Below, one piece after another: positions 2,089 through 48,724 of a stretch of 64,000 nt of DNA. The translations under genes and the position numbers were made by a program. Origin of the DNA: a virus (Duplodnaviria; Caudoviricetes); the IMG/VR virus record IMGVR_UViG_3300029288_000111, positions 37,093 to 101,092 of that record. The stretch is one strand, 5' to 3'. The notes below the pieces were generated by a model. The model was not told where the DNA came from and searched no databases. It saw only the letters and a list, made by a program, of their open reading frames with translations. Each line of letters begins with the position of its first letter. Position 1 is the stretch's first letter.

Positions 2089-2093
2089 GTCAG

Positions 2094-2513: not shown

Positions 2514-2531
2514 TTCCGTCCTCCCGTTCTC

Positions 2532-2708
2532 CTACAGCGGCAGCGCGAGCTGCTCCACCCGCCCCCGGCGGGGTTCCGCCGGGGGCGGTGGCTCAACAGC
2601 AGGCGCGGCCGGTCCTTTCAGCTTCCTGCCGCAGTGCGTGCAGTAGGCCTCCCCCGGCACGCACAGCTCGATCTCCCGCGTGCACCGGGGGCAGGCCACT
2701 CTCCCCAC
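2532..2708 (-). CDS. small zinc-ribbon protein
   Basis: CPRC..CTHC pairs; GTG 2708 after GAGGGAG. Confidence 0.55.
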   Translation of the reverse strand: MGRVACPRCTREIELCVPGEAYCTHCGRKLKGPAAPAVEPPPPAEPRRGRVEQLALPL

Positions 2709-2715
2709 GTCTCCC

Positions 2716-2994
2716 TCACGACGAGACCGGCGCATACGCTCGCTCCTCGCCCGCGTAGGCCAGCATCCGGCCAGTGAGCTCGCGCCGTACCAGCTTCTCG
2801 GCGGCCTCCATCGCGACCCGATGGAGGTCGGCCATCAACCCCAGCGCGGCGACCCGGTCCTCGCTGCACGCGCGCCTCAATATCTCCTGCAGGCGCTCCA
2901 GACCCTCCTCAGCCTCTGCCAGCGCCGTCTCGTGCGTGCCCCGGCAGAGATTGGCCCCCGCCACGTCCAGGTTCGCCCGTGCTCTCTCCATCAC
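2716..2994 (-). CDS. hypothetical protein, first gene of leftward operon
   Basis: GGAGGGAGGAG RBS directly downstream of promoter 3017-3042. Confidence 0.7.
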   Translation of the reverse strand: MMERARANLDVAGANLCRGTHETALAEAEEGLERLQEILRRACSEDRVAALGLMADLHRVAMEAAEKLVRRELTGRMLAYAGEERAYAPVSS

Positions 2995-3016
2995 TCCTCC
3001 TCCCTCCTGCCACTGC

Positions 3017-3042
3017 TAACGATCCAAACCGGTCAGCGTTCC
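3017..3042 (-). promoter_or_regulatory. ECF-type promoter GGAAC-N16-CGTTA (leftward)
   Basis: GGAAC gctgaccggtttggat CGTTAGC. Confidence 0.8.
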
Positions 3043-3078
3043 CGGAATCTGCACCCGTTCATCGGAGTCGAGATTCCG

Positions 3079-3104
3079 GGAACGCTCGGCCCCCTCGCGC
3101 GTTA
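3079..3104 (+). promoter_or_regulatory. ECF-type promoter GGAAC-N16-CGTTA (rightward, divergent pair)
   Basis: GGAAC gctcggccccctcgcg CGTTAGC, then GGGAGG RBS and ATG 3126. Confidence 0.8.
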
Positions 3105-3125
3105 GCAGTGGCAGGGAGGAAACGA

Positions 3126-3440
3126 ATGAGCGACGTGGCGAGAGAGTTCCGAAACGCAAGGCGCGTGGATACGGCCAAGGACTCCGCCCTTCTCGGGCCG
3201 CGCGGCCTTCCCGACTACGACCGCATGGCGACCGTGTCGGCGTTCGGGCGCGCGCTGGATTACCTCTGCCAACTGTCGGAAAGCCGGCGGACGGCCCTCG
3301 TCTGCAGCGAGGGCGACCCGATGCAGTGCCACCGGGAGAAGTTGCTGGCCCGCGAGCTACGCGCCCGCGGCGTGGAAGTGCGGCACATCCTGAGGGATGG
3401 GAGCATCGCCCCGCCGCCTGCACAGGGAGCCCTGCTATGA
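3126..3440 (+). CDS. DUF488-like protein (C-terminal half)
   Basis: ALVCSEGDPMQCHR..LL..G.EVRHI motif. Confidence 0.7.
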   Translation: MSDVAREFRNARRVDTAKDSALLGPRGLPDYDRMATVSAFGRALDYLCQLSESRRTALVCSEGDPMQCHREKLLARELRARGVEVRHILRDGSIAPPPAQGALL

Positions 3441-3461
3441 AGAAGAAGGAGAAGACCGACA

Positions 3462-3722
3462 ATGGGCACACATGACACCCCTCCGAGCGGCGGATCGCAC
3501 GTCCGCTCACTCACGCTCTCTCACACCTTCGTCGTCGGCGACGGCGAGGACGCCCGCCTGCACTGCGACCACTGCGGTGAGGAAGTTCCGATGCCCTACG
3601 GGGTCGTCACCTGGGTCTGTGGCGTAATCGACGCCTTCAATGCCGCTCACTGCCGCTGCCACCCAGGCGACGAACCCTTTGGCCGCACCCGCTTTGCCGG
3701 AGAAAGGAATCCCGATGCCTGA
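3462..3722 (+). CDS. hypothetical protein with CxxC
   Basis: RBS AGGAG; ORF fits operon. Confidence 0.55.
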   Translation: MGTHDTPPSGGSHVRSLTLSHTFVVGDGEDARLHCDHCGEEVPMPYGVVTWVCGVIDAFNAAHCRCHPGDEPFGRTRFAGERNPDA

Positions 3723-4482
3723 GACGATCACCCCCGCGCCGGAGCCGGACGTCGAGGAACTCAACGCCGACCGCTGCCCGATGACGCTGCCCCTCTCCAT
3801 GTGGCAACTCCTCGCCAAACTGTCCTGGCCCGACGGCCTCTCGAAGCGCCTTCGCAAAGCGGTGGCCGAGGCGGACATCAAGGATGTCATGCTCACCCTC
3901 TGGCCGAACCCCGGGGAGTATTTCGTCCTCGCCCCGACGGCGTTCGCCCTCCTCAATACCGAGATCGACCGCCTGAAAGGGCACGCCGAGTCGGTGATCA
4001 CCGACCTGCGACTGCGGAGCCAGGAGGTCAAGGACGGCAAGTTCTGCCTGAATGTCGAAACCCGGCACGAGCTGATGACCGTCCTGGCTGCGAGTCTGGC
4101 GAACATCCTGTCATCAGCAGGCGCATCGAACTACGTCGAGTTCACGGTGGCGCACCCAGACTTCGGCCCGCTCACCCTCACCCTTCAGCGCCAGCAGGGC
4201 AAGACGCCTGGACAAGTCGCCGCCGAGGTGATCGCCGAGCGCGATGCCGCCCGCGCCGAGGTGAGTGCGGCTTGCTGCTTTAAGTTCGTCGGACCGGGCG
4301 GAAGGTGGGTGGCAAGTAGTATCCCGGACGGCAAGTGGATCTGTTACCGGAACGATGGGCCGCTCGCACTGCGGTTGCCGTGGACGGACCACGCCACCCA
4401 GGCCGAGGCCGTCGCCCATGCGCGCGCTGAGGCCGCTGTCTACGACGCCGCGCTGAAGGAGCAGGAGAACGCCAATGTCTGA
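3715..4482 (+). CDS. hypothetical protein
   Basis: ATG 3715 with AAAGGA RBS; high GC3. Confidence 0.7.
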   Translation: MPETITPAPEPDVEELNADRCPMTLPLSMWQLLAKLSWPDGLSKRLRKAVAEADIKDVMLTLWPNPGEYFVLAPTAFALLNTEIDRLKGHAESVITDLRLRSQEVKDGKFCLNVETRHELMTVLAASLANILSSAGASNYVEFTVAHPDFGPLTLTLQRQQGKTPGQVAAEVIAERDAARAEVSAACCFKFVGPGGRWVASSIPDGKWICYRNDGPLALRLPWTDHATQAEAVAHARAEAAVYDAALKEQENANV

Positions 4483-4672
4483 GACGCACTCCGTATACCG
4501 CGCCGGCCAGGAGCGCGAGCCACTCAAGGTGGGCGACCGCGTTCGCGTGGAGGGCGTCGTGACTAACATAGGACACTGGAGCGCGGCGATCCGCCTGGAG
4601 ACCGGCGATTTCGTTTTCATATCGCTACCTACCGCCAACCGCCTGCCGAAGATCCAGGAGGTGCAGGAATGA
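4475..4672 (+). CDS. hypothetical protein
   Basis: Translationally coupled ORF. Confidence 0.55.
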   Translation: MSETHSVYRAGQEREPLKVGDRVRVEGVVTNIGHWSAAIRLETGDFVFISLPTANRLPKIQEVQE

Positions 4673-6081
4673 CCACCGCGCAGGAGCGCCGGCATCCACA
4701 CACCCTGGGCAGCGGAGAAGGTCAGCAGGTGAGCTACCAGATCCTTCAGGGTGACTGCTGCGAGGTGCTGGTGGGCCTGCCGGACGGGCACTTCCAGACC
4801 TGCATTACGTCGCCGCCCTACTACAACCTGCGATCCTATAATGCGGGCGACCGCGAGATAGGGCAGGAGAGCACCCCGGAAGCCTATGTGGCGCGCCTGG
4901 TGACCGTGTTCGCCGAAGTGCGTCGGGTGCTGCACGATACCGGGGTACTGTGGGTCAATCTTGGCGATAGCTATGCGAACTGCGGCGGCCCCGAACCGGC
5001 GCTGCCAGCGGGCAACCTCCTTGGCATTCCCTGGCGGTTCGCCTTCGCGATGCAGCAGGACGGGTGGCTCTTGCGTTCGTCTGTGGTGTGGGCTAAGGCG
5101 GTGAGCTATAACCCTGGCTACAGCGGGTCGGTGATGCCCGAATCAGTAAGGGGGTGGATATGGGGACGGTGCCGGGTGAAGGCGGAGGGGCGCCCGTACC
5201 GGCAGCATCAAAGCGTTGCCGGGGAAACGTGGACAGGAGACGTATCGCGCAAGCTGACTGCCACGTACAGTGACTGCCCCGGATGCGAACGCTGCCTTCC
5301 CAACGGCGGCTACGTCCTTCGCCGGGGTTCCTGGCGGCCCACCAGCGCCCACGAGATGGTGTTCATGTTCACGAAGGGTGGTGATTACTTCTGCGACAGC
5401 ACGGCAGTGGCGGAGGTGGGAAGTGGGCGTGTACCAGGAAATGTGAAGCCACAGAAAGGTGTGGGGGATAAAGGATTTGAGATTCGCGGAGGGCTACTCG
5501 CTTCACAGCAGCAGCCACAGATGACCCGCAACCCACGGAACGTGTGGGATATACCCCTAGAAACCGACGTGCTGAAGCTGAGCCCGCGTGGGTCATCGCT
5601 TCCCCACTACGCTTTGTTCCCGCCCGACCTGGTACGCCCGATGATCCGGGCGGCAACCGGCGGCAGAGAACATCCGGGTGTGTGTAGCTCCTGCGGGATG
5701 CCGTGGAGCCCTGTAGTGGAAACACAGCGAGGGTTCCGCGTTGACCGCCCGGCGGTCAACGCGGAACAGACCGGACGTTCTGATGGGTTCACACCACCAC
5801 CTGCTTCCAAGGATATATACCAAAAGCACGTTTCATCCTACCGCCCATCCTGCCCCCACGCCGACGCCCCGGCGCGGCCGGCGCGCGTCCTAGACCCCTT
5901 CTCGGGCATGGGCACCACCTGCCTGGTGGCTATCCAGGAGGGTTGCGACGCCACCGGGATCGAGCTGAACACGGATTACGCCCGCATGTCCGAGGAGCGC
6001 ATAGATCGTGAGGGGGTGATCGGCCCCCGCGCCTACGACCGGCAGCAGGCCGGGCAGTTGCGACTCATGGAGGTAGGCTGA
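4669..6081 (+). CDS. site-specific DNA amino-methyltransferase (N4C/N6A, beta order) with Cys-rich insertions
   Basis: Catalytic TSPPY precedes SAM-binding VLDPFSGMGTT; GIELN; HYALFP. Confidence 0.92.
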   Translation: MTTAQERRHPHTLGSGEGQQVSYQILQGDCCEVLVGLPDGHFQTCITSPPYYNLRSYNAGDREIGQESTPEAYVARLVTVFAEVRRVLHDTGVLWVNLGDSYANCGGPEPALPAGNLLGIPWRFAFAMQQDGWLLRSSVVWAKAVSYNPGYSGSVMPESVRGWIWGRCRVKAEGRPYRQHQSVAGETWTGDVSRKLTATYSDCPGCERCLPNGGYVLRRGSWRPTSAHEMVFMFTKGGDYFCDSTAVAEVGSGRVPGNVKPQKGVGDKGFEIRGGLLASQQQPQMTRNPRNVWDIPLETDVLKLSPRGSSLPHYALFPPDLVRPMIRAATGGREHPGVCSSCGMPWSPVVETQRGFRVDRPAVNAEQTGRSDGFTPPPASKDIYQKHVSSYRPSCPHADAPARPARVLDPFSGMGTTCLVAIQEGCDATGIELNTDYARMSEERIDREGVIGPRAYDRQQAGQLRLMEVG

Positions 6082-6085
6082 CACA

Positions 6086-6603
6086 GTGCAACTCGTGCCG
6101 CTGAAACTATCCGACGCTAACGCCCTGGTGGCCCGCTACCACCGACACAACAAGCCTGTGGTGGGCTCCCGCTTTTCTATTGGTCTAGTGTTCGGCGGCC
6201 AGTTGGTCGGCGCGGCCATTGTCGGACGGCCAGTAGCTCGACACCTGGACGACCTCATGACCGCTGAAGTGACACGGGTGTGCGTGACGCCGGAAGCGCC
6301 GAGGAATGCGAACTCTTGTCTCTATGGTGCCTGCTGGCGGGCATGGCGGGCGATGGGCGGCAGGCGCATGGTGACGTACACGCCACGCGGGAGAGCGGTG
6401 CGTCCCTGCGTGGGGCGGGGTGGCGGTGCGTTAGCGACGTGCGTGCTGATGAATGGTCTTGCAAGAGCCGGCCGCGTCAAACACAAACTGTCTACGGCGA
6501 GACGAAGTACCGTTGGCAGGTAGGGGAAGATTCGCCGGAAGTGCCGACGTGGGAAACGAGTGACCGGCAGCTGGCCGGGCAACTTGCCCTGTTGGAAACC
6601 TGA
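6086..6603 (+). pseudogene. XF1762 / Mom-like family protein, frameshifted near 6385
   Basis: HRHNKP..GRPVAR.LDD..EVTR..LYGA..TYT in one frame; ESGASLRGAGW..KYRW in another. Confidence 0.75.
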
Positions 6604-6618
6604 GAGGAACTGAACACC

Positions 6619-6942
6619 ATGGACTCGCGTGAACAAGCTGAAGACCGCCCCGTTTTCGACGAGTGGGCCGTTGTCGAACTCCTCGGCCACACCACCCTCG
6701 CCGGCCGCTGCACCGAGGAAACCATCGCCGGCGCGGGCGTCCTGCGGATCGAGGTGCCCGCGACGAACGACACTCCCGCCTTCCGCCGCTATGTCGGCCC
6801 GAAGGCGCTCTACTCCATCACGCCTTGCTCGGAATACGAGGCGTACCGGCTGGCCGCCCGGCTGAAGGCCGACCGCCTCCCATTCGGCTTCGAGCGCCCG
6901 GAGGCCGGCGGCGAACCCGAGGACCCCTGCGAGAGGGAGTAA
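6619..6942 (+). CDS. conserved phage hypothetical protein
   Basis: WAVVELLGH..AG..LRIEVP..ALYSITP motif; RBS GAGGA. Confidence 0.75.
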   Translation: MDSREQAEDRPVFDEWAVVELLGHTTLAGRCTEETIAGAGVLRIEVPATNDTPAFRRYVGPKALYSITPCSEYEAYRLAARLKADRLPFGFERPEAGGEPEDPCERE

Positions 6943-6979
6943 GCACAAGAGTCAAGATTCCGAGAAAGGGAAAGAAGCG

Positions 6980-7267
6980 ATGAAGAGAACCCCAGAACAG
7001 ATCCGCGCAGAGTTGAGCGAGGTGTCGAGGATACATGCCCAACTGGAATCCCTGGTCAAGAATGCGAATACGTTCTTCCGGTCGAGTGCGGAAGAAGGAT
7101 GCGACTCCAGCGTCTTGGAGTGCAGACGAAGCTTGTGTAGAGACTACCAGCGGGCAGCCCAGGTGTTGGACACGGTCACGACCATGCTGACCTATGAACT
7201 AAACGACTCGGTGCGGCTCACCCGTGGGGCCAAACAGGAGGACGCCCCGAACGCAGCATCCTCGTAA
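6980..7267 (+). CDS. hypothetical protein (lower GC)
   Basis: ORF with purine-rich RBS; last gene before hairpin. Confidence 0.55.
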   Translation: MKRTPEQIRAELSEVSRIHAQLESLVKNANTFFRSSAEEGCDSSVLECRRSLCRDYQRAAQVLDTVTTMLTYELNDSVRLTRGAKQEDAPNAASS

Positions 7268-7363
7268 CCCCGCACCCGCCAACCGGGCGAGCACTTTGGC
7301 CGTTTCGGTCGTTCCGACCACAAACGGGAGGAGATAGGAGGGCGTCATGTAGCCCGTACACGC

Positions 7364-7401
7364 GAAGAGGCCCGGGCAGGTTTCCCCACCCGGGCCTCTT
7401 C
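7364..7401. terminator. inverted repeat between convergent operons
   Basis: GAAGAGGCCCGGG...CCCGGGCCTCTTC 13-bp stem. Confidence 0.65.
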
Positions 7402-7450
7402 TCTCCGCCCGCCTGAAAATCAACCGCCGCAAAATGCGCGAGAGACAGGT

Positions 7451-8008
7451 TCAGCTACCCAGCGCCCGCAGCCGCTTTGCCAACTCTGCCGCGAACCGCA
7501 CCCGCGTCTCCCGCGCCGCGATGATCCGCCGGTCCCTCGGGCAGGTGAGATACCCCACCTCCACCAGCGCGCAGGGGCCGCGAAAGTCCATCACCGCCAG
7601 CCGATGCACTGCGGTCTCCCGCTCGTTCCGCACGCCCCTGTCCCTCAGCCCGGTGGCTCGCAGGCAGGCAGCATGAACGATACAGGCGAACTTCTGATCC
7701 TCACCGTCGCGGAAGAACGTCTCCACCCCGCTGGTCAGGATGCTCCCGGCGTTGGCGTGGATGCTCAGGAAGTGCGTGCAGCCCGCCGCGCGGGCACGCT
7801 CGTCGCGGTTGCCTACCGGCGCGGCGTCGCGGTCGTCGGCGCGAGAGAGCCAGCAGGCGATCCCTGCCTGCACCAGTGCCCACTTCAGCGTCAGCGCCCA
7901 CTGGAGCGCCAGGTCCGCTTCCTGGATGCCCCCCGCACACGCGCCGCAATCGTACGAGCCGGAAGTCTTATTCGAGAACCCATGTCCGGGATCAAGGGCG
8001 AGTTTCAT
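7451..8008 (-). CDS. N-acetylmuramoyl-L-alanine amidase (Amidase_3) endolysin
   Basis: LDPGHG, E, LSIHAN, VEVGY zinc/catalytic motifs. Confidence 0.92.
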   Translation of the reverse strand: MKLALDPGHGFSNKTSGSYDCGACAGGIQEADLALQWALTLKWALVQAGIACWLSRADDRDAAPVGNRDERARAAGCTHFLSIHANAGSILTSGVETFFRDGEDQKFACIVHAACLRATGLRDRGVRNERETAVHRLAVMDFRGPCALVEVGYLTCPRDRRIIAARETRVRFAAELAKRLRALGS

Positions 8009-8213
8009 CGATCCACCCCCCGTCCGGGTCCTCGTCCATCTCCGGCACGGCCGGCGACTTAGGCCACGGCACGATCAGCGGAACCGACCCCCCCTTCAGT
8101 TCAGGATCGGTCGGCGGCGCCTTCTCCCGCCGCCGCAGCCACGCCCCGATCCGCACGACGAGTTGCCAGCCCTTCACCGTCACGATGATCTTCTCCGGGA
8201 TCGGCAGCTTCAC
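7992..8213 (-). CDS. small hypothetical protein, lysis region
   Basis: GTG 8213 after AAAGGAG; overlaps neighbours. Confidence 0.55.
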   Translation of the reverse strand: MKLPIPEKIIVTVKGWQLVVRIGAWLRRREKAPPTDPELKGGSVPLIVPWPKSPAVPEMDEDPDGGWIDETRP

Positions 8214-8521
8214 GGCGCTTCTCCTTTCGCCCGCAGCCGCTTCAGCGCGGCCTGCACCAGCGCCTTCGCCCGCCGGCAGGCCCGCCGCACCAGCGCCCGC
8301 ACCAGCGCATCCGGCAGGAGCCGCCCGAACCGATGGGCACGGATCCATGTCACCGCCGTGTCTTCGAGGACCCGCTCCAACTCCTCCTCACTAAGGCAGG
8401 AGTCGGGATCCACCCGCGCTGTCTTCTCCGCCTGCCGAACCGCCAACGCGGTCCGCTCCTCCACCGCCTTCAGGCCCGCCAGCAGCGCCGCGGCGATGGC
8501 TAGGCCCGTTTCGAGGTTCAC
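8210..8521 (-). CDS. hypothetical protein, lysis region
   Basis: Coupled ORF with hydrophobic N-terminus. Confidence 0.6.
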   Translation of the reverse strand: MNLETGLAIAAALLAGLKAVEERTALAVRQAEKTARVDPDSCLSEEELERVLEDTAVTWIRAHRFGRLLPDALVRALVRRACRRAKALVQAALKRLRAKGEAP

Positions 8522-23700: not shown

Positions 23701-25089
23701 TCATACCCGTCCACCCGCTGCACGACGCGGATCTCCTTCTGGCTCCTCGGGCTGTAACTGCGCTTCGTGCCATCGGGATAGGAGACGATCCCCTTGCCCG
23801 CCCGTCGCCTCCAACCTGGAAACCCGCCCACACCGGCCCCGGAACAGCACCATATCGCCGGTGCCGAAGTGGAAGCGCCGCTTCCACCGCCTGGCCGTCA
23901 TCGGCAGGCCGTCCTTCCCCAGACGGGGAAAACCGGGAGCGCGATACCGCCGCAGTCCGCGGTCTCCATGCCCCTTGGCAGTCGCGAAGAGAACCCACAC
24001 CTCCCGCGCCCCTCGCTTGACCGACAGGAGCGGCGCCTCGCTCCAGGCATACGCCGAGCGACCGACACAAAGAGCATCCAGCGAATGTGTCTTCGCCAAG
24101 CGGAACTGATCCCGAACGAAGTGCGTCATCCCGCCCGAGCCGGTTTCCAGGGGCAAGCCCATGCGCCGGATCCGGGCACAGAGATCGGTCCGCGCCGAGT
24201 TTACCGCCGCCGCGTCTTTATACGACTTACCCACCTGCGCTTGCACATCGGGGTGCCCAAACTCTACCGCCGTCCGGTTCTTCTTGGCCTGGTTGCACGG
24301 TCCGCAGGCGATGGTGAGATTGCTCACCCGATTGGTTCCGTCCCTGCCTTTCGGAATGATGTGCTCCACCTGAAGCGGCCCCGGAAACTTCTTGTTGCAG
24401 TAGGAGCAGCGGTGGTGGAACTTGTAGAGAAGATACTGCTTCAACTCGTAGCCGGCGAGGGTGCCGCGTTGATACTCCATCCCCTTGATGTCCGGCTTCT
24501 CCATCTTCTGGGTGTCGAAGCGCACCGCCTCGACCGATATTCCCGTCACCGGCGCCCACCGGCACAACCGCTCAATCCACGAAACCTGCGAAAGGACCCG
24601 CGCCTTCACCGCCGGAGACAGCCAGCGCCCGCGCGTGTCCTCGCCGTTGTGCCGCACGCCCTTGTGGCGCCAGCACCAGTCCTTGCCACTTCTGGCGTTC
24701 TGCCCGCAGATGTGGCACTTCACGCGCGGGCGGTTCCTGAAGCGCCGGGGGCGGTAGCGGCGATACTTGTTGCGGCGCATCCGGCGCCAGTTCCGACGCT
24801 GCTGCATCTTCTTGTGAATGCCCCGGCGGTGCTCAATCTCCATCAGCGCCAGGGCGCGCGGTCGGTTCCCGCCTTCTCGGACGACGGCCAGTCCAGTTGC
24901 CTTCGATCCCGGATCCAGCTTCACCCGCACCGACTGCAACTCGCTCTCTTCCACCGTTCGGTCCGCCAACCGGATCACGAAGGGGGAGCGGCGGTGAACA
25001 CGCGCCCGGCCCCTCTCCAGGAGGAGTCGCGCCCGCTTCTCCGTGCAGGGCATCAGCGGATTCTGATGTTTGTCCAGAACGTAGACCAT
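23701..25089 (-). CDS. iscB: IscB RNA-guided endonuclease (C-terminus appears frameshifted)
   Basis: PLMP, RuvC-I LDPGS, Arg-rich bridge helix, RuvC-II VEAVRFD, HNH CSYC..EHIIP..GTN..NL..C..CN, RuvC-III HSLDA. Confidence 0.95.
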   Translation of the reverse strand: MVYVLDKHQNPLMPCTEKRARLLLERGRARVHRRSPFVIRLADRTVEESELQSVRVKLDPGSKATGLAVVREGGNRPRALALMEIEHRRGIHKKMQQRRNWRRMRRNKYRRYRPRRFRNRPRVKCHICGQNARSGKDWCWRHKGVRHNGEDTRGRWLSPAVKARVLSQVSWIERLCRWAPVTGISVEAVRFDTQKMEKPDIKGMEYQRGTLAGYELKQYLLYKFHHRCSYCNKKFPGPLQVEHIIPKGRDGTNRVSNLTIACGPCNQAKKNRTAVEFGHPDVQAQVGKSYKDAAAVNSARTDLCARIRRMGLPLETGSGGMTHFVRDQFRLAKTHSLDALCVGRSAYAWSEAPLLSVKRGAREVWVLFATAKGHGDRGLRRYRAPGFPRLGKDGLPMTARRWKRRFHFGTGDMVLFRGRCGRVSRLEATGGQGDRLLSRWHEAQLQPEEPEGDPRRAAGGRV

Positions 25090-26814: not shown

Positions 26815-27741
26815 CTAACGCTCCACTCGCCGAATCGTTCCCGCTCCCTTCGCCCGGGCCACCTTCCGCATCGCCATCGCGAAATCCCACGCCGCCATCG
26901 CCTTGACTTCCTCCTTGGTCCACGTATCGGGGTCCTTGGAGATGCACGCCGGCCGCGGCGGCACCGGCGGCAGCGGCGGCGGCAGCGCCTTTCGCAGGTG
27001 CATCTCCTCGCGGATCTCGGGGAGCTTGCGCAGCAGCAGATCGCGCGCCCGGAACAGCCGAGTGCGCACGGTCGCGGGCGAGACGCCGATCCTCTCGGCT
27101 GCCTCCGACGGCTCCAGCCCCTCCATCCACACCAGCCGTGCCGTCTGGCGGAACGGCTCCGGAAACGCGGAGACGGCCCGCATGATCGCCGTCATCATCT
27201 CACGGCTCACCACGTGCTGCTCGGGGGTCATCCCGGCCGCTGCCAGGATGTCACTCAGCACGCCCCCATCCTCGCCCCCGAGCGGCGCGTCGAGGCTCTC
27301 CAGGGATGGCTGCCGGTTCCGCTGTCTCCCCAAGTCGCGCCATTTGTTCCTCGCAATCGTGAACGTCCACGCGCGGAAGTTCCTCACTTCGGCATCCTCC
27401 TCGCTCTCATCCTCTTTCTGGCTGGCGAGCGGGTCGAACTGCTCCAGCCCGCCCCACGCCGCGGCGAGGGTATCCTGCACCAGGTCGGCGGCATCATCCT
27501 CGCTCAGGCCGTGCTTGCGCGCCCAGCCGAACAGTTCCTGTTCCACCGCCTCATGCCACTCCTCGAACCGCCGCGTGCGCTCCGCGTCGGAGACGTGCCG
27601 CCAGTAGCCCTCGGCACCCGGCTCGCGAGTCCATTGCCCGCCCTCCGCGCTGCCCTTCGGCACGCGCGGCTCCTCACGCCATCCCTTCAACAGCCGCGAC
27701 GCCAGGATGTCACACGCAATCGCCTTCGCCAATCGGCTCAT
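26815..27741 (-). CDS. ECF-type RNA polymerase sigma factor with N- and C-terminal extensions
   Basis: Region 2 DAADLVQDT..F..W.FTIARNKWRD; region 4 FRQTARL..EGL..EAAERIGVSPATVRTRLFRAR. Confidence 0.92.
   Translation of the reverse strand: MSRLAKAIACDILASRLLKGWREEPRVPKGSAEGGQWTREPGAEGYWRHVSDAERTRRFEEWHEAVEQELFGWARKHGLSEDDAADLVQDTLAAAWGGLEQFDPLASQKEDESEEDAEVRNFRAWTFTIARNKWRDLGRQRNRQPSLESLDAPLGGEDGGVLSDILAAAGMTPEQHVVSREMMTAIMRAVSAFPEPFRQTARLVWMEGLEPSEAAERIGVSPATVRTRLFRARDLLLRKLPEIREEMHLRKALPPPLPPVPPRPACISKDPDTWTKEEVKAMAAWDFAMAMRKVARAKGAGTIRRVER
26816..26841 (-). promoter_or_regulatory. ECF-type promoter overlapping the sigma gene stop codon
   Basis: GGAAC gattcggcgagtggag CGTTAGC. Confidence 0.75.
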
Positions 27742-41710: not shown

Positions 41711-41844
41711 GCTCTTCTGCCTTTCTCCCGCCGTGATGGCGGAATCAGAAGGGGCCGCCCCGCTTCCGGCGCGAGCGGCCCCCGAATCGAAAAGGCCAGC
41801 CCCGAGAGGGACCGGCCTTCGGTGTTGTGCTATTCAGTTGTCAC

Positions 41845-43035
41845 TCAGAGAAACGTTGGGTCTATCTCGTGCAGGAACGCAAACCGATCCGGTGCTGCCG
41901 CGAACCTGTGTCCGATAACACCAGCACCGCCCGGGAGGATGACATTGTTCCGGCTCCAGTCATCCCCATCGGCGCCATTGTTCACTAGCAACCAGATGTG
42001 CTCTCGGTCGCCTTCGACCAAGAACTCTTCTCCGGTTCCGTAGATAGTGAATCCGCCGTGGTACTTCACTCGTCGACCATCCGGCAGCGGAACGTTCAAT
42101 GGGTGTTCCGCATCTCCTGGGTTGAAGAGAGACGCCTTGCGCTGGGCGAGCATCTTGTCTGCCGAGTTCCTCTGCTCGACCTCACGCCGAGCCTTCTCAG
42201 CGCGCTCCGTGCAGGCTTTCGTATCGCGGCAGAATACGTGCCACCCAGGTCGAGCACCGAACCCGAGGTGATCGTCCACGTCATCCTCGTCATAGTGAAC
42301 GAGGCTTCCTTCACCCGCTGGCACCATTCTGCCGCATGTAGAACAGTGCTGGGCGCGACGGTTCGTGCGCTTGGGCGCCGCACTTGCCTTCGGTGTTGCT
42401 GCGCGTTGGGGCGTCCTCTGCATCGCCAGCGAGCAATGCCTTCGGACACTCTCCTCAGCCTCAGCGGGGAAGACCCACATTTCGTTCACCGGACTCCACT
42501 GACCACCCAGCGCCCGAGCGCCCGACTCGAACGCAGGGTCCCTCAGTATCCACTTTGCCCCAAGCAACCTCGCTGACACAAGTAGCTTCTTGGACCCACG
42601 ACTGGGGAAACGCCCGAGTTCGAACTCGAACATTTCCTCGGGGTTGTACTGCTTCTTTTCCATCGTCGTTTCCCCTTTCCCTGGAGATAACGACGATTTC
42701 GACGCCGCGTTCCCGGAATCTTCCCTCCCAGCGAAGAGATCCGGCCCCGCTTCCTTGACCTTCTCCCGCTTGGTCATGTCCGGCCGCTTCCCCTTCGCCT
42801 TCTCGGGCTTCTTGTCCTCCACCCAGTAGGTCTGGGTGAAGTGCTCGGTCTTCCCGCCCCGCTTGCGGGTGACGCTCTTGCGCTCCTCGTGCAGCCCCTG
42901 GCGGGGCGCGCTGTGGGGCGTGTCACTCTCGCCGAAGCACAGCCACCGCTGCCCGCCCCGCTCCCGCCGGCCGTACTTCGAGAGCGCCTTCTCCAGCAGG
43001 AGTTTCAACGCGATGCACTTCGCCAGCTTACTCAT
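41845..43035 (-). CDS. leader-module fusion protein A; internal restart at ATG 42663
   Basis: MSKLAKCIALKLLLEKA leader, duplicated module, lower-GC cargo with CSTC; GGAGG RBS. Confidence 0.75.
   Translation of the reverse strand: MSKLAKCIALKLLLEKALSKYGRRERGGQRWLCFGESDTPHSAPRQGLHEERKSVTRKRGGKTEHFTQTYWVEDKKPEKAKGKRPDMTKREKVKEAGPDLFAGREDSGNAASKSSLSPGKGETTMEKKQYNPEEMFEFELGRFPSRGSKKLLVSARLLGAKWILRDPAFESGARALGGQWSPVNEMWVFPAEAEESVRRHCSLAMQRTPQRAATPKASAAPKRTNRRAQHCSTCGRMVPAGEGSLVHYDEDDVDDHLGFGARPGWHVFCRDTKACTERAEKARREVEQRNSADKMLAQRKASLFNPGDAEHPLNVPLPDGRRVKYHGGFTIYGTGEEFLVEGDREHIWLLVNNGADGDDWSRNNVILPGGAGVIGHRFAAAPDRFAFLHEIDPTFL
42688..42713 (-). promoter_or_regulatory. intragenic ECF-type promoter
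   Basis: GGAAC gcggcgtcgaaatcgt CGTTATC, then AAAGGGG RBS and in-frame ATG. Confidence 0.8.
42709..42991 (-). repeat. 283-bp direct repeat, copy A
   Basis: Gapless, high-identity alignment to 48389-48671 (offset 5680). Confidence 0.9.
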
Positions 43036-43088
43036 CTGAACCTCCGCAGGAAAGACATCAGTGGACACGAAATAGAGTCAAGATTCCG

Positions 43089-43114
43089 GGAACGCTCGCG
43101 CGCGGCCGTCGTTA
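43089..43114 (+). promoter_or_regulatory. ECF-type promoter
   Basis: GGAAC gctcgcgcgcggccgt CGTTATC. Confidence 0.82.
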
Positions 43115-43140
43115 TCTACCGTGGAGAGAGGAACAAGACG

Positions 43141-43551
43141 ATGAACATCAAGACGCTGGAGACGCTGGAATGGAAGTCCGGGCCGGAGTATCTCAGTGAC
43201 GAAGCGAAAGTCGATCATGGCGTCTACTCGATTGACAGCCCCGAGGGTTGCGGCCATAGCAATGTCTGGTACACTCCTCGCGGCGGCACGAAGATCCACC
43301 TCGCTACGGTGAGTGACACGGATTCGGACAGCCGGGCGCACATCCTCGTGGAGTTTGCCGAGGAGACGGTGGCCACCATCCGCGACTGCGACATCAGTGA
43401 ACCCATCTGCGACACCCTCGCAGATCACGACTTTGAAGAGGCGGTGCGGCGATCTTGGGATTATGACGACAACAGCAGGCGCGCCGTCTTCGCCGACTTC
43501 CAAGCATTCCGCACGTTGGTGGTGCGCCTGCTCCACCTCATCACCGCCTAA
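43141..43551 (+). CDS. hypothetical acidic protein
   Basis: ATG 43141 after promoter and GAGAGG RBS. Confidence 0.75.
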   Translation: MNIKTLETLEWKSGPEYLSDEAKVDHGVYSIDSPEGCGHSNVWYTPRGGTKIHLATVSDTDSDSRAHILVEFAEETVATIRDCDISEPICDTLADHDFEEAVRRSWDYDDNSRRAVFADFQAFRTLVVRLLHLITA

Positions 43552-43624
43552 CCCGCCATTGGGAGGAGTCCTGCTCCCCACGCCCCGCCCGCCGGGCCAA
43601 GGCGGGCAGAAGGAGACGGATAAG

Positions 43625-43822
43625 ATGATAGTCGGTTACATCGGACGAAACACACCCAGCAAGCCTGACAGAACTTCGGTCTTGATGGCGCTGGGAGGAC
43701 AGGTGTCACCCGGCGGTGACTTCATCTACTTGCCCGGTGATCAGTTGCCGGCCATGCTCGCGCACCTCGCACACGAGTGGAATCCCGTCACGCGCGAGCC
43801 CGAGTGGTTCATAGCACGATGA
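43625..43822 (+). CDS. small hypothetical protein
   Basis: AAGGAG RBS. Confidence 0.55.
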   Translation: MIVGYIGRNTPSKPDRTSVLMALGGQVSPGGDFIYLPGDQLPAMLAHLAHEWNPVTREPEWFIAR

Positions 43823-43853
43823 CACCCCCGGGGGCGCCCCGCACGCCCCCGTT

Positions 43854-44138
43854 CTACCCCTCCCGCCCGATCTGCTCGTGCGCCATCGCTTCCACCTGCC
43901 GCGCCCGCGCCAGCGTCTGCACCGCCCGCAGGTAAGCGATGCGCGCTTCCCGGCGCTTCACCGGGTCCGGGTCATCCACCAGTGGCGCGAACCGCTCCTG
44001 CGCCGCCAGCGCCTTCTTGATCAGCGCCTCGGCCGCTATCTGGCACTCCCGCGCCCGCAACCGTACCGCGTGGGCACTCTTCTCCGCCCGCGCCAGCGCC
44101 CGCCGCGCCCGCTCCTGGCTCTTGGGGAGGGTTGGCAT
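43854..44138 (-). CDS. hypothetical helical protein
   Basis: Coupled to upstream gene (TGATG). Confidence 0.65.
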   Translation of the reverse strand: MPTLPKSQERARRALARAEKSAHAVRLRARECQIAAEALIKKALAAQERFAPLVDDPDPVKRREARIAYLRAVQTLARARQVEAMAHEQIGREG

Positions 44139-44524
44139 CAGTCCTCGTCATCCCACTCCATCTTGCCGGACAGGGTTGCCCGATGGTGAACCGTAGCAAC
44201 CCGTATGGCACTCTCATGGGATGGCAGAACTGCAATACGCTTCTCCACCCCTCCCGCCTTCTGGTGGTAAGTGAGCCAGTGCCGGCCGTTAGGCGCGCCC
44301 TCAATATAGTAAACACCATGCCCGGCGTCCGCACGATGCACGGGGGCCCCCTTCGCTTCCCTGCTCCCCTGCGAGAAGTGGAGTTGCGGTTTGGCGTCCG
44401 TAGCATCAAAGTCCATGACCCCCTGCCCGGCCTTCTCCGCCCGCTGCTTCCCCGCCGCCGTCAACCCTTTCAGGAGCCGCTCCACCACGATGTTGAGCGC
44501 GATGGACTTGCCCAGTCTACTCAT
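44138..44524 (-). CDS. leader-bearing hypothetical protein
   Basis: MSRLGKSIALNIVVERLLKG. Confidence 0.7.
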   Translation of the reverse strand: MSRLGKSIALNIVVERLLKGLTAAGKQRAEKAGQGVMDFDATDAKPQLHFSQGSREAKGAPVHRADAGHGVYYIEGAPNGRHWLTYHQKAGGVEKRIAVLPSHESAIRVATVHHRATLSGKMEWDDED

Positions 44525-45675
44525 CCCCGTCCCTCCAGCCGCTCCAGGAGCAACTTCAGCGCGATCGCCTTCGCCAGGCGTCCGCCGCGCGTCGCCCGGC
44601 CCCGGATCATCCGCAGGAAGGTGCTCTCGCTCACGCGCGTCGCCTCATGGTCGAACTTCCCCAGGTCCGGCACGTGCTTCCACTGCCCGCGCACCAACAT
44701 CTGCGGCCAGGAAGCGTGCGCCCGCCGGACCGCCGGCTGCCCATCCCACGAGTAGTATCCCGCGGAGAGCGCCGGTCGCCCCCGCCGCGCCACGTCCGGG
44801 TGGTGGAAGTGTGACCGCCGCTTCCCCTGCCCCTTCATCAGCCCGCCCTTCTTCCCCAGCACCGGCGTTCGCCCCTCCATATTCCGCACCGCCTGCCCGT
44901 AGAGGCGGTTGGAGCGCGCGTTCAGGTCCTGATACCGTACCTTCCCCTCCGGCGTCTCCAGGTCCGCCGGCTTCATCGAGCGCATCCCCTCGTAGAGCTT
45001 GTGCCCCGCCGCTTCCCCGCCCAGACCGTGCTGCTTGGCCTGCAGCATGTCGATCGGCATGATCTGCAGTTCTCCAACGTGCCCGGTCTGGGGGTGCTGT
45101 GGGCGCACGGTGATGTCCTGGTAGCCGGCGTCCGTCTTCTTGTAATCCGGGGCGCCCGCCAGCGGCATCCCCGCCTGCCGCAGGTGGTGCGTCACGTGCG
45201 CGATGTCGTCGGGGTGGCTCACGGCGATGGTCGCCCGGCTCACGTCCTTGAGCTGTCGGTAATCGCCTCCCTTTCCCTCGATCTTCTCCTTCGCCCGCTT
45301 CTCGCCCTTGAGCGGCGCCAGGATCACCATCCCGCCCTTGCGGTGCCCCGCCGCATAGTCCTCCGGCGTCGGAGAGTGCCCCTCGACGACGTGCAACCCC
45401 AGTTTCGACGAGAGCCCCTTCTCCCGGTCAATCACGTTGTCCAGCCACTCCTTGTGCGCCGCGGCGTGCTGGTAGAGCGTCGGCAGGTGGCCGCTCTTCT
45501 GGCGCACCTCGTGTTCCGGGGTGGCCGTCATCTCCTCGTGGGTGAAGTGCTCCGTGGCCTCCGGCCCGGTCCGCCGGTGCGCCGATTCCGGGTCGAAGTG
45601 CGGGGCGCCTATCGGCGGGGCCGCCGGGCGCGTGGCAGGAGTCGAGACTCCGGGGCGGGGTTGTGGGTAGATCAT
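44521..45675 (-). CDS. RelA/SpoT-like nucleotidyltransferase domain protein
   Basis: LK..RA.EK, LKDVSRATI, GYQD, ELQI, GHKLYE motifs; leader-like sequence at C-terminus. Confidence 0.75.
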   Translation of the reverse strand: MIYPQPRPGVSTPATRPAAPPIGAPHFDPESAHRRTGPEATEHFTHEEMTATPEHEVRQKSGHLPTLYQHAAAHKEWLDNVIDREKGLSSKLGLHVVEGHSPTPEDYAAGHRKGGMVILAPLKGEKRAKEKIEGKGGDYRQLKDVSRATIAVSHPDDIAHVTHHLRQAGMPLAGAPDYKKTDAGYQDITVRPQHPQTGHVGELQIMPIDMLQAKQHGLGGEAAGHKLYEGMRSMKPADLETPEGKVRYQDLNARSNRLYGQAVRNMEGRTPVLGKKGGLMKGQGKRRSHFHHPDVARRGRPALSAGYYSWDGQPAVRRAHASWPQMLVRGQWKHVPDLGKFDHEATRVSESTFLRMIRGRATRGGRLAKAIALKLLLERLEGRG

Positions 45676-46481
45676 GACCTCTCCGATCCTCTCAGTACCT
45701 TCTGCCGTTCTCCATACTCGGGGTAATCGGCCAGCACTTCCGGCGGCACCGGCTTCCCGTCGTACCGCACCGCATCGCTCACACTCGTCCGGTGCATAGC
45801 CTCAAGATCGTGTTGCACCATCTGCATGTTGAAGCGATGCCCGGGAGCGAGTCCCTTTTCCTCCTGCCGCGTCTGCTCCAGGCCCGCTGTCACGAACTCC
45901 TCCCGCGTCATCTGCCAAGGCTCTCTCTTGGCAGGCTTCTCGCGCTTCGCTCCTGTGCTGCTGCTCCTCCCACCGTCAGGCGCTGCACCCACGCGGGCTT
46001 CCTGCGCCCCCCCAGTCACCGCGGAGAATCTCGGCGTTGGCACGGTCGTAGGTGTGCTGGGTGTCTCCGCCACCCGGGAACCCCATGCGCGCGCCACATC
46101 GCCCGCGAAGTCATCATGACTTTGCCACAGTTTGCTCTGCTCCAGTGGTAGGTTGAAGAATTCGTTGGCAGCAACGTTCCGCACTTGAGTGGCACTGCCC
46201 GAACCATGCAACTGCGTCCGTATGCGCCTAAGCACCACTTCAACCACCTTGGGTTTGCTGTCCGCACCCTCGGCGGCGGCCGCAGGCGTGCTAGGTGCCC
46301 CTCTCCCCTTCGGCACGAACTCCCCGCCCCGGTACTGCCCGGTGGCTCCCTGCTGCGCCCGAGGGTGCTGCTGCTCGAAGTCGAACCCCATCTGCCCGGC
46401 CGCCGCCGCCGCCCGGAAGGCCCGCTTCGAGGCCGCCTTCACCAGGATGTCGAGCGCGATCGCTTTGCCGAGAAGACTCAT
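45672..46481 (-). CDS. leader-bearing protein with polyvalent-protein motifs
   Basis: MSLLGKAIALDILVKA; HPR..GGEF; PWQMTREEF; KPVPPEVLADYP. Confidence 0.7.
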   Translation of the reverse strand: MSLLGKAIALDILVKAASKRAFRAAAAAGQMGFDFEQQHPRAQQGATGQYRGGEFVPKGRGAPSTPAAAAEGADSKPKVVEVVLRRIRTQLHGSGSATQVRNVAANEFFNLPLEQSKLWQSHDDFAGDVARAWGSRVAETPSTPTTVPTPRFSAVTGGAQEARVGAAPDGGRSSSTGAKREKPAKREPWQMTREEFVTAGLEQTRQEEKGLAPGHRFNMQMVQHDLEAMHRTSVSDAVRYDGKPVPPEVLADYPEYGERQKVLRGSERS

Positions 46482-46536
46482 GGCAGGACCCTCTCTCTCT
46501 CAGGGCGAACTCGGAATCTTGACTCTGGAGAACACC

Positions 46537-47076
46537 ATGCACCAGTACGAAGTCGGCAAGCCCTACCACCCGAACCGCCGCTCCTGGCCCGAGCGCGGCG
46601 TCTACGAGTACCGCGGCGGCCAGCACGAGCTGCTCCTCTTCTGGAGCCAACCCACCACGAAAGAGGTCGAGGACGTGAAGCGCGGCCCCGCCGAGTTCGC
46701 CCTCTACACCGAAGGGCCGCTGATCGTCTTCCTCTTCCGCTTCGGCCGAAACACCCCCTGGAGCGATTCCCCCTACACCATCCACCTGACGCTGCCCGAC
46801 GAGCGCACCCTGCCGCCGCCCGTCGCCTCCACCGAGACGCGCATCCTGCTCCACGTGGTGCTCGTGGACGCCGCCACCGGCATCATCCGCGCCCTGCGCG
46901 CCGTCACTCTCTCGCCCGAGTTCACCGCCGCCCTCCAGGACGCCATCCGCGCCCAGAGCGAACAGCCGTTCCACCCCGCTGCCTATGACGCCGCCATCGC
47001 AGGCATCTACCGCCGCTTCCCCCACAGCGACCGCCTGGCCGCCGCCGCGTCGGTGAAGTGCATCGGCGGGGAGTGA
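46537..47076 (+). CDS. conserved hypothetical protein
   Basis: GGAG RBS; W.DSPY..H, LVDA.TGII.ALR motif. Confidence 0.75.
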   Translation: MHQYEVGKPYHPNRRSWPERGVYEYRGGQHELLLFWSQPTTKEVEDVKRGPAEFALYTEGPLIVFLFRFGRNTPWSDSPYTIHLTLPDERTLPPPVASTETRILLHVVLVDAATGIIRALRAVTLSPEFTAALQDAIRAQSEQPFHPAAYDAAIAGIYRRFPHSDRLAAAASVKCIGGE

Positions 47077-47084
47077 AGATTCCG

Positions 47085-47110
47085 GGAACGCTCGCGCGCG
47101 GCCGTCGTTA
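47085..47110 (+). promoter_or_regulatory. ECF-type promoter
   Basis: Identical to the 43089 copy across the promoter and into the leader. Confidence 0.82.
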
Positions 47111-47136
47111 TCTACCGTGGAGAAAGGAGAACGACG

Positions 47137-47475
47137 ATGCCGAGCACGATCGATCTGAAGGACCGGCTGGACACGATGCTCACCGGCGAGCCGAATCCGA
47201 AAGACACCCTCGCCTTGATCAGGGAGATGCTCCCCAACATTGCTTCCAGGATTCCAGCGATGCTGGAGCACGAGGGTGGATCCAACACGGTCTCCGCGCT
47301 CTTGGCGAAGACCCTGGCGAAGACCCCGATGGCGCCCGATGTGCCCGAGGCCGAGAAGGTCGGTTGCACCAACCCGAGCGCGGTGGCCGACTACCTGATC
47401 GTCGCCGCAAGCGACGTGTTCGGCCCGCACATGCGCGCCGTGGCGCTGGCTACCGCCCGGGCCTTCCTCGTCTGA
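47137..47475 (+). CDS. hypothetical protein
   Basis: AAAGGAG RBS after promoter. Confidence 0.75.
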   Translation: MPSTIDLKDRLDTMLTGEPNPKDTLALIREMLPNIASRIPAMLEHEGGSNTVSALLAKTLAKTPMAPDVPEAEKVGCTNPSAVADYLIVAASDVFGPHMRAVALATARAFLV

Positions 47476-47531
47476 TCATCACTTCCGGGGGCGCCCCGCA
47501 CACCCCCGGCGCGTTACCTTCCCACCCATAA

Positions 47532-47565
47532 CAAAGGCCCGGTCGCTCATCCGACCGGGCCTTTG
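47532..47565. terminator. inverted repeat between convergent genes
   Basis: CAAAGGCCCGGTCG-N6-CGACCGGGCCTTTG. Confidence 0.7.
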
Positions 47566-47578
47566 GCGATCCTATGGG

Positions 47579-48724
47579 TCAATCCCACTGATGCCGATTC
47601 GCCTTCTCCTCGCGCTCCTTCTTGATCGCAGCAAGAATCTCGGGGTGCTCCGCGTCGAACTGTGCCAGTCGCTCCCTGGCTTCCTCAGCAGCCTCCACAT
47701 GCTTCGCCCGTTCGTGGTATCCCACATCCACGATGCCGCGATCGTGCGCGCGGTTCACGGCATCATCGGCATCATCCATGTGGCCTGACACCTCGGCCGC
47801 CAGCCGCTGCCGCTCCGCGCGAAGCGTATCCAACTTGCCCGATGGAGTCTGCCGCTCCGCCTCGTCGGCTACCCGGATCGCCTCGATGATCGCCTTGGCC
47901 TCTTCGCTCGTCAAACCGATGGCGGGCTTCGTGTGGCTCAGGTAGTGGGTCGTATCCCCAACCCGCTTGTTGAGTTTGGTAGGATCTCCGGTACCAACGT
48001 ACTTGCCGTCCAGATACGCTTGGGCGACGTGCTGACCCGCGTACCGGTGCAGCTTGATCTCGACGGTTCTCCCGTCCTTTCCTGTCTTCTTGATGACCGC
48101 ATTCATCGTCGTTTCCCCTTTCACTGGAGATAACGACGGGGAGGCGCCAGCGTTCCCGGAATACTTCTCTTCGGAAGAAGCCATCCCCGCTGCCTCTCGA
48201 AAGACCTTGAGGAGTTCTTGCGCCAACTCTAAACTCATGCCGTGTCCTGGATACTCCCCTGTGTCAATCCCGAGTTTGACAGTATAGGCATTATCCACGT
48301 TCCAGGCGACGCTATGACCTGCTGCGGCCGTCTTCATTTGCTCCAACAGCCTTGTTTCTTCCTGGTTCAGGCTTCTCTTCTCCCCAGCGTTCCCGGAATC
48401 TTTTCTCTCGCTGAAGAGGTCCGGTCCCTCATCCTTCGCCTTCTCCCGCTTGCCGAAGTCCGGCCGCTTCCCCTTCGCCTTCTCGGGCTTCTTGTCCTCC
48501 ACCCAATACGTCTGGGTGAAGTGCTCGGTCTTGCCGCCCCGCTTGCGGGTGACGCTCTTGCGCTCCTCGTGCAACCCCTGGCGGGGCGCGCCGTGGGGCG
48601 TGTCACTCTCGCCGAAGCGCAGCCACCGCTGCCCGCCCCGCTCCCGCCGACTGTACTTCGAGAGCGCCTTCAGCACTCGCTCGGTGAGGATGTCAAGCGC
48701 AATCGCTTTCGCCAACCTGCTCAT
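47579..48724 (-). CDS. leader-module fusion protein B; internal restart at ATG 48106
   Basis: MSRLAKAIALDILTERVLKA leader, duplicated module, different cargo; GGAGGT RBS. Confidence 0.75.
   Translation of the reverse strand: MSRLAKAIALDILTERVLKALSKYSRRERGGQRWLRFGESDTPHGAPRQGLHEERKSVTRKRGGKTEHFTQTYWVEDKKPEKAKGKRPDFGKREKAKDEGPDLFSERKDSGNAGEKRSLNQEETRLLEQMKTAAAGHSVAWNVDNAYTVKLGIDTGEYPGHGMSLELAQELLKVFREAAGMASSEEKYSGNAGASPSLSPVKGETTMNAVIKKTGKDGRTVEIKLHRYAGQHVAQAYLDGKYVGTGDPTKLNKRVGDTTHYLSHTKPAIGLTSEEAKAIIEAIRVADEAERQTPSGKLDTLRAERQRLAAEVSGHMDDADDAVNRAHDRGIVDVGYHERAKHVEAAEEARERLAQFDAEHPEILAAIKKEREEKANRHQWD
48131..48156 (-). promoter_or_regulatory. intragenic ECF-type promoter
   Basis: GGAAC gctggcgcctccccgt CGTTATC, RBS, in-frame ATG. 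Confidence 0.8.
48389..48671 (-). repeat. 283-bp direct repeat, copy B
   Basis: Aligns to 42709-42991. Confidence 0.9.

Follow-up and report, generated by a model that had tools for sequence, protein, structure and literature searches.

How does a complete promoter come to lie inside a protein-coding frame, and what would such a gene make? Two genes, here called A and B, raise this question in a window of 64,000 nt, the whole stretch that was analysed (bases 37093-101092 of the 101-kb IMG/VR virus record IMGVR_UViG_3300029288_000111), in a single metagenome-derived contig that represents one tailed-phage genome, with an estimated completeness of 72% and a GC content of about 65%. Both genes begin with a closely related module, a short N-terminal leader followed by a conserved basic core and a flexible tail, and both continue without a stop codon through a promoter of the extracytoplasmic function (ECF) type into an unrelated open reading frame (ORF), the cargo. 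Our preferred reading, which we hold tentatively, is that moron-like cassettes were captured by way of their promoters behind a probable virion-targeting module, and that each locus may give a tagged and a free isoform of its cargo.

A repeated module in front of two different cargos

Genes A and B are paralogous mosaic genes (Table 1). Products of exactly 396 and 381 aa are listed for the 101-kb contig in a public protein collection, presumably as automatic gene calls. A strong Shine-Dalgarno (SD) sequence precedes the leader ATG of each gene, and no stop occurs before the end of the cargo. The repeat that relates the two genes measures 294 nt (42698-42991 and 48378-48671, 90% identical and 5680 nt apart) and is itself a mosaic, with a leader part of about 60% identity that contains a 9-nt indel, a 210-nt core of 96% identity and a 60-nt tail of 73% identity. 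Its final 14 nt are the -35 box GATTCCGGGAACGC, identical at 14/14 positions, and homology breaks right after the box. A first-pass annotation of this DNA had described a 283-bp repeat ending at the -35 element in both copies; the two copies and their common end point stand, and the length is corrected to that given here. The continuous frames, the linker peptides quoted there and the in-frame ATGs at 42663 and 48106 were confirmed by translation. Base composition also bears out the description of a module joined in frame, through a complete promoter and ribosome-binding site, to unrelated ORFs of foreign composition: the GC content at third codon positions (GC3) is 0.90-0.93 in the module, close to that of the phage core genes (0.86-0.91) and of the surrounding genes (0.86-0.93), and drops to 0.68 in cargo A, 0.75 in cargo B and 0.61 in an extra segment of gene B.

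Between the two copies of the module core there are five synonymous and three non-synonymous changes, a ratio of non-synonymous to synonymous rates (dN/dS) of 0.17; at least five synonymous changes of eight would be expected under neutrality with P=0.02, and purifying selection appears to act on both copies of the core. Beyond the leader, residues 16-105 of the module have an isoelectric point of about 10. A single-sequence structure model predicts a helix for the leader (at low confidence) and a beta hairpin for the core (predicted local distance difference test score, pLDDT, about 80), with the rest disordered.

The cargos are self-contained cassettes with the anatomy of morons, as judged from their sequence: each has its own consensus promoter (predicted), its own terminator and a deviant GC3. 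The C-terminal half of cargo A gave 625 hits, often standalone proteins of about 170-180 aa or else the C-terminus of varied proteins. Among phages, cargo A gave one weak hit. A structure predicted for this family (pLDDT 83) found no convincing match in the PDB, the best Foldseek E value being 0.1 and the best VIA match, Z 5.4, covering the N-terminal part only. No homologue of cargo B or of the extra segment was found in phages or in the ESM Atlas.

Table 1. Features of genes A and B and of other genes of the cluster and window (positions in the window)
Feature	Position	Strand	Remarks
Gene A	41845..43035	-	Continuous 396-aa ORF: leader, core, linker/promoter, cargo A
Leader A	42976..43035	-	Leader model against six-frame ORFs, alignment, codon variation
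Module core A	42781..42990	-	70 aa, basic, 96% identical to copy B
Diverged tail/linker of module A	42721..42780	-	73% identical to B
Promoter and 5' untranslated region of gene A, ECF-type	42661..42720	-	Read as 19 codons
Parts of promoter A	-35 box 42707-42720; -10 region 42685-42695; SD 42671-42675; ATG 42661-42663	-	Motif alignment
Hairpin A	42662..42697	-	-10 region paired with SD and bases before AUG; -18.5 kcal/mol, z -5.5
Cargo A	41845..42663	-	272 aa; C-terminal half is a widespread family of unknown function
Terminator hairpin and U run after gene A	41791..41820	-	-25.7 kcal/mol, z -3.5
Gene B	47579..48724	-	Continuous 381-aa ORF
Leader B	48656..48724	-	Leader model against six-frame ORFs, alignment, codon variation
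Module core B	48461..48670	-	Repeat comparison
First -35 box of gene B, exact	48387-48400	-	No -10 behind; recombination joint; motif and repeat comparison
Extra in-frame segment of gene B	48164..48386	-	Stop-free; pattern of GC at codon positions 1/2/3
Second promoter and 5' untranslated region of gene B, complete	48104..48163	-	-35 box 48150-48163; -10 region 48128-48138; ATG 48104-48106
SD-sequestering hairpin B	48107..48138	-	-16.2 kcal/mol, z -2.95
Cargo B	47579..48106	-	175 aa, orphan; single-sequence model a small beta sheet and long helices
Terminator hairpin after gene B	47524..47581	-	-39 kcal/mol, z -5.7
Promoter and 136-aa ORFan cassette, divergent from gene A	43075..43551	+	Repeat and promoter motif
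Leader-bearing 128-aa gene	44138..44524	-	Leader model
Leader-bearing 269-aa gene	45672..46481	-	Leader model
Second opposite-strand promoter and 112-aa ORFan cassette	47071..47475	+	Promoter 93% identical to that of the 43075..43551 cassette
ECF sigma factor with leader, behind a promoter of the same class	26815..27741	-	Sigma70_r2/r4_2 hits, leader model

Promoters within an open reading frame

The promoters embedded in the two genes belong to a family of repeats. The motif GGAAC-N16-CGTTA, with a longer conserved -35 box, occurs in about 14 copies ahead of gene starts across the record (23 near-matches compared with 11 +/- 3 in shuffled sequence; eight exact copies); the copies share the -35 box and CGTTA and come in two flavours just downstream, TCT or GCAG. 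The -35 GGAAC, the 16-nt spacer, the -10 CGTT and an ECF sigma gene in the same genome are, by sequence, what is expected of ECF sigma-dependent promoters, and both embedded promoters fit the consensus as well as the intergenic copies do. The promoter of gene A and the complete promoter of gene B agree at 13/14 positions of the -35 box, at 2/11 of the spacer and at 34/35 from the -10 to the ATG, and a diverged spacer between kept elements is a pattern that suggests a functioning promoter. The distance from box to ATG is 57 nt only in the two embedded copies; it puts the cargo in frame, so that promoter and 5' untranslated region (UTR) read as a linker of 19 codons rich in Ser, Gly, Pro and Lys. 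Intergenic copies with the same -10 flavour and the same ACGATG start context have distances of 58-59 nt and are out of frame with the module. The open frame through the promoter, taken as evidence in itself, was rejected, since frames stay open by chance at 65% GC: in a control, 5 of 13 promoter-proximal ATGs were preceded by more than 50 codons without a stop. It counts here because the module's own frame, which is demonstrably coding (a strong SD and ATG, the high GC3 given above and a leader homologous to seven other N-termini), has no stop.

The repeat in gene B ends in a perfect -35 box that no -10 follows, and the supposedly decayed promoter at 48389 is thus a truncated one instead. From this first box to the next runs a span of 237 nt (79 codons), with the extra segment bracketed by direct copies of the box; this segment is stop-free in the frame of gene B only, the other five frames holding 1-4 stops, and its GC content at the three codon positions is of the coding type. 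The order of box, span and complete promoter looks like two successive captures, in line with the serial capture proposed in the first-pass annotation, and the breakpoint of homology at the -35 box fits, and lends support to, its idea of recombination at promoters. The captured cassette would have consisted of promoter, UTR, foreign ORF and terminator, and such cassettes may have reached their place directly behind the module by homologous recombination, with the 14-nt -35 box of promoters native to the phage as the site.

In both embedded copies the region from the -10 element to the AUG can fold into a stable hairpin whose 5' arm consists of the -10 region. The stem is lengthened by 5 bp in which UCUCC pairs with the SD GGGGA; this extension occurs only in these two copies, and three of the four intergenic copies that were folded gave weak structures (-5 to -9 kcal/mol). 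Transcripts started upstream, in the case of gene B from an operon with the polyvalent protein described below, would carry the whole hairpin with the internal SD locked in it, and since the SD would be hidden, only the leader-tagged fusion would be translated from such read-through RNA. At ECF promoters, transcription starts a few bases downstream of the -10. RNA made from the embedded promoter would thus begin inside the 5' arm of the hairpin and lack that arm, leaving the SD free for synthesis of the untagged cargo. Both genes have a second SD/ATG pair in frame with the first, and the hairpin that covers the internal SD is significant; given the predicted transcript 5' ends, it is possibly an isoform switch. 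Two isoforms are suggested by the promoter-type pattern of conservation together with the SD-sequestering hairpin.

Two further observations concern the promoter motif. A match at 46505-46526 was rejected as a working promoter: it lies between divergent genes, its -35 is mutated and a -10 is missing, and it is regarded as a relic. Upstream of the -35 box of class-1 promoters (window 43073-43078, 31910s and 46510s) lies a conserved AGAGTCAAG, which on the opposite strand reads TTGACT, a sigma70-like -35 hexamer facing the divergent gene, and possibly marks a back-to-back arrangement of promoters.

The leader family and competing explanations

The leader spans ~20-40 aa and consists of an amphipathic helix of about 20 aa and, about 10 aa later, a GQxxxxF motif, which in the alignment appears as an invariant GQ, then a hydrophobic stretch and a Phe. 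A hidden Markov model of the leader matches the N-termini of eight proteins in the record, plus one relic, with i-Evalues of 1e-9 to 1e-12 for six proteins and a weaker match for a giant protein. Among the bearers are the products of genes A and B, proteins of 128, 269 and 160 aa (the last encoded upstream of the window), an ECF sigma factor and a polyvalent protein of 2465 aa. The latter (record bases 846-8243 (-), upstream of the window) is the second of its kind in this genome, has hits to an Eco57I-like methylase, to ResIII helicase and to Helicase_C as well as a sub-threshold intein-like hit, and begins with a variant leader and the GQ..F motif. Sigma70_r2/r4_2 hits were obtained for two ORFs in the record, and the second ECF-type sigma factor (L015:14850-15602 (-)) has no leader. 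The conserved Leu, Lys, Arg and Ile positions of the leader use 2-4 different codons each, which indicates that constraint acts on the protein; on the same grounds, conservation of the leader as an RNA or translation-operator signal was rejected. A 384-aa ORF (44521-45675 (-)), which matches RelA_SpoT weakly and below threshold (E 0.016), carries the leader relic (44542-44586) in frame at its C-terminus. The next gene begins, with its own leader, directly after the relic, which looks like a tandem duplication of the leader minus its ATG.

The genome is that of a novel phage of about 100-140 kb, with 65% GC and two encoded ECF sigma factors. A megablast against phages revealed no relative; IMG/VR searched with the module, with the capsid protein and with the promoter pattern contained no related genome, and metagenome contigs searched with the promoter pattern gave 78 single hits, none of them related by tblastn with the ORFs of the phage. 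The major capsid protein (39027->37534 (-), phrog_752) has two homologues only, at 53% and 28% identity, and its sole distant homologue carries the SU10_MCP family. Genes A and B are part of a hyperplastic cluster that has a polyvalent-protein gene on one side and the head genes on the other. The polyvalent protein in question, of 2577 aa (57733->50000 (-)), combines ART, an intein and a helicase C-terminal domain; its gene is followed by one for a 417-aa protein, and gene B starts 14 nt past the stop of the latter. No Pfam or PHROG family was found in genes A and B or in their neighbours, and hence no homology to known families of capsid-targeting sequence (CTS) or internal proteins. In the record, which is 72% complete, the portal family PF04860 was not found.

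The leader-bearing proteins of this phage are otherwise unrelated and have a short N-terminal peptide in common. A targeting role of the module is plausible because the leader heads eight such proteins, including the giant polyvalent protein, and because genes A and B sit between the polyvalent-protein gene and the head genes. By analogy with the CTS of T4, the leader would probably bring proteins into the procapsid, to be delivered together with the DNA. The first-pass annotation had combined a targeting module, recombination at a promoter and early genes turned into dual-mode genes; the in-frame architecture is upheld, recombination at the promoter fits the breakpoint, and targeting is kept as plausible, on the strength of the leader's distribution. 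As to timing, the phage-sigma promoters of phiEco32-type phages are middle or late (PMC8948821), which makes early expression uncertain here, unless the sigma factor that bears the leader is itself delivered along with the DNA. If this is true, the leader on the sigma factor would imply injection of the phage's own sigma, so that these promoters could fire without delay. The fullest form of the proposal is that effectors delivered by the virion arise through in-frame capture behind a packaging leader, with the ECF promoter as both joint and linker, and with two forms from each locus, an untagged intracellular one from the embedded promoter and a tagged one, packaged and injected, from read-through RNA, the hairpin separating the two outputs; in this entirety it seems to us somewhat doubtful.

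Several findings weigh against capture behind a virion-targeting module with two isoforms. The promoter/UTR copies of A and B are near-identical, so that in-frame spacing and hairpin have to be scored as a single evolutionary event and not once per gene, and the hairpins, being near-identical as well, offer no covariation; moreover, the intergenic copy at 47098 also folds well (-17.7 kcal/mol), and the start site on which release of the SD would depend is a predicted one. The first box of gene B is perfect although the sequence immediately before it has diverged by 27% (P=0.013); either recurrent recombination maintains the box or it is of very recent origin, and a perfect box alone is therefore no proof of promoter activity. 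No promoter for the long form of gene A was found, a sigma70 scan giving matches at chance level, and no motif for a late promoter is shared upstream of gene A and the polyvalent gene. By our estimate the frame would have remained continuous without selection in roughly 1/9 to 1/27 of cases, which is suggestive and not decisive because A and B share the junction of module and -35 box by descent; the control with 5 of 13 open frames points the same way. The module has no homologue of any length outside the record in 1.8e9 or 5.8e9 proteins, so that no other cargo behind it came to light. The 2577-aa polyvalent protein beside the cluster has no leader, and a prohead protease was not securely identified, the nearest to one being a sub-threshold Peptidase_S78 hint (E 0.008) in a syntenic gene of a distant relative, with a weak match to a 266-aa ORF here.

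The fusions could be incidental. A stop codon would have been lost or left out in the recombination, the extension being tolerated or neutral, and the functional products would be the free cargos, perhaps with a small protein of leader and core. The cargos are complete units of promoter, ORF and terminator that need nothing from the module, the matching of frames is merely a 1/3 event per junction, and the chance frequency of open frames and the common descent of the junction, both given above, fit this explanation too. Ribosomes that start at the well-formed SD and ATG of the leader must nevertheless enter the cargo, since there is no stop; the 79-codon insert of gene B is in frame and stop-free in that frame only; the 57-nt spacing and the SD-locking stem extension are limited to the two embedded copies; and the module core is apparently under purifying selection in both of them. 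We consider read-through without function unlikely. The converse, that the embedded promoters are silent fossils of recombination and only tagged multi-domain proteins are made, is more improbable still. The first -35 box of gene B, with nothing promoter-like behind it, illustrates that a box can persist without function, and near-identical UTRs could reflect a recent duplication, but the spacer has diverged (2/11) while the -35, the -10, the SD and the start context were kept (47/49), which points to a working promoter and not to a uniformly young duplicate; moreover, the embedded promoters match the consensus no worse than those between genes.

The leader might also be an interaction tag of another sort, for RNA polymerase, a chaperone or the sliding clamp, in which case the fusions would recruit cargos to that partner and not to the virion. 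The GQxxxxF motif loosely resembles clamp-binding peptides. A leader on a sigma factor would suit such a tag, as a limited search of the literature found no sigma factor packaged in virions, and so would the lack of a leader on the 2577-aa polyvalent protein beside the cluster and the fact that no leader family was seen in the distant relative L012. Its presence on the giant methylase/helicase protein argues for a virion signal instead, polyvalent proteins of phages having been inferred to be packaged and injected (PMC5512222), as do the clustering of leader genes beside the head genes and the pattern, known from the CTS of T4, of unrelated proteins that share an N-terminal peptide alone (PMC3012670). 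On balance we regard a tag for another partner as rather unlikely. An artefact of assembly, in which the repeat caused a chimeric join, has in its favour that the record is a single metagenome-derived contig; it is highly improbable, however, since the copies differ at 28/291 in-frame positions, with a mosaic pattern and an indel that mark distinct loci and not a collapsed repeat, and since unique, coherent sequence flanks them on either side.

Related systems and neighbouring cassettes

By analogy, the locus is a variant of the T4 CTS/internal-protein locus, of shuffling by promoter early stem-loop (PeSL) elements and of morons, and it would work like them; its place beside the CTS does not rest on sequence similarity. 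The internal proteins of T4 are diverse anti-defence proteins whose common feature is the CTS alone (PMC3012670), and here, too, a short N-terminal peptide is the sole common part of unrelated small proteins, in a variable cluster of presumed anti-defence or take-over proteins in which conserved 5' ends serve as recombination joints. In contrast to T4, the leader has no sequence homology to the CTS proteins, is longer and bipartite, and also heads a giant polyvalent protein and a sigma factor; moreover, the joint to cargos A and B is the promoter downstream of the tag and not the tag itself, and packaging and cleavage are putative here. The PeSL cassettes of T4-type phages also combine repeated promoter motifs in a hyperplastic, ORFan-rich region with breakpoints at the motif (PMC2839356, PMC4122927). 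A repeated promoter motif with breakpoints in a variable region was found here as well; a sigma70-like early promoter with an upstream terminator stem-loop was not. Instead, the promoters are of the ECF type and predicted to depend on a phage sigma factor, the stem-loop, which holds the SD, is placed after the -10 and before the AUG, the terminators are at the 3' ends of the ORFs, and the coding frame continues through the cassette.

Morons are units of promoter, ORF and terminator in phage genomes, and classical ones sit between genes. Each cargo resembles them in that promoter, SD, ORF and a strong terminator form a unit of its own, with a composition unlike that of the flanking genes. It differs in that its frame is continuous with the gene before it, which makes the promoter a linker as well. 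In-frame isoform genes switched by the 5' end of the transcript and by hairpins that hide a ribosome-binding site are known from T4 genes 49, e, soc and I-TevI and from T7 4A/4B. Genes A and B also have two in-frame starts; a predicted hairpin would hide the internal ribosome-binding site on the longer transcript, and a promoter inside the hairpin would give an RNA on which that site is free. Here, however, it is the long RNA that would yield the long form, while the short form would come from the internal promoter, and the two halves of each gene are of different origin. The sigma regulons of phiEco32/7-11-like phages share with this phage a capsid protein that is distantly SU10-like, a phage sigma factor and a repeated bipartite promoter with a 16-nt spacer (PMC8948821); the promoter here differs in being classic ECF GGAAC/CGTT, and there are two sigma factors, one with the leader.

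If our preferred reading of in-frame capture is true, it would describe a simple route by which a horizontally acquired unit of promoter, gene and terminator becomes a cargo delivered with the DNA while its free expression is kept, and a natural case of a complete promoter that serves as a protein linker. The leader would then be a candidate tag for capsid targeting in a phage that belongs to neither the T4 nor the phiKZ group, and one by which injected anti-defence proteins could be sought in uncultured phages. Should the fusions be incidental, the locus would still be a clear example, outside T4, of modular shuffling mediated by promoters.

Six copies or relics of the promoter motif lie within 42.6-48.4 kb, a region in which two ORFan cassettes with such promoters are on the plus strand (Table 1). 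A GC-rich palindromic element of 29 nt lies 3' of both of these cassettes (43823-43851 and 47480-47508, 90% identical) and forms a modest hairpin without a clear U run; it is possibly a cassette end or a bidirectional terminator. A 179-aa gene with a GC3 of 0.94 (46537-47076 (+)) is located between the 269-aa leader gene and the promoter cassette at 47071, and a minus-strand ORF of 379 aa across the same stretch was dismissed as spurious. Elsewhere, a 462-aa protein with RRXRR and HNH (23701-25089 (-)) is IscB-like, and a 646-aa protein (L014:9392-11332 (-)) combines DUF3008, InPase and 2H phosphoesterase, which are typical components of phage polyvalent proteins.

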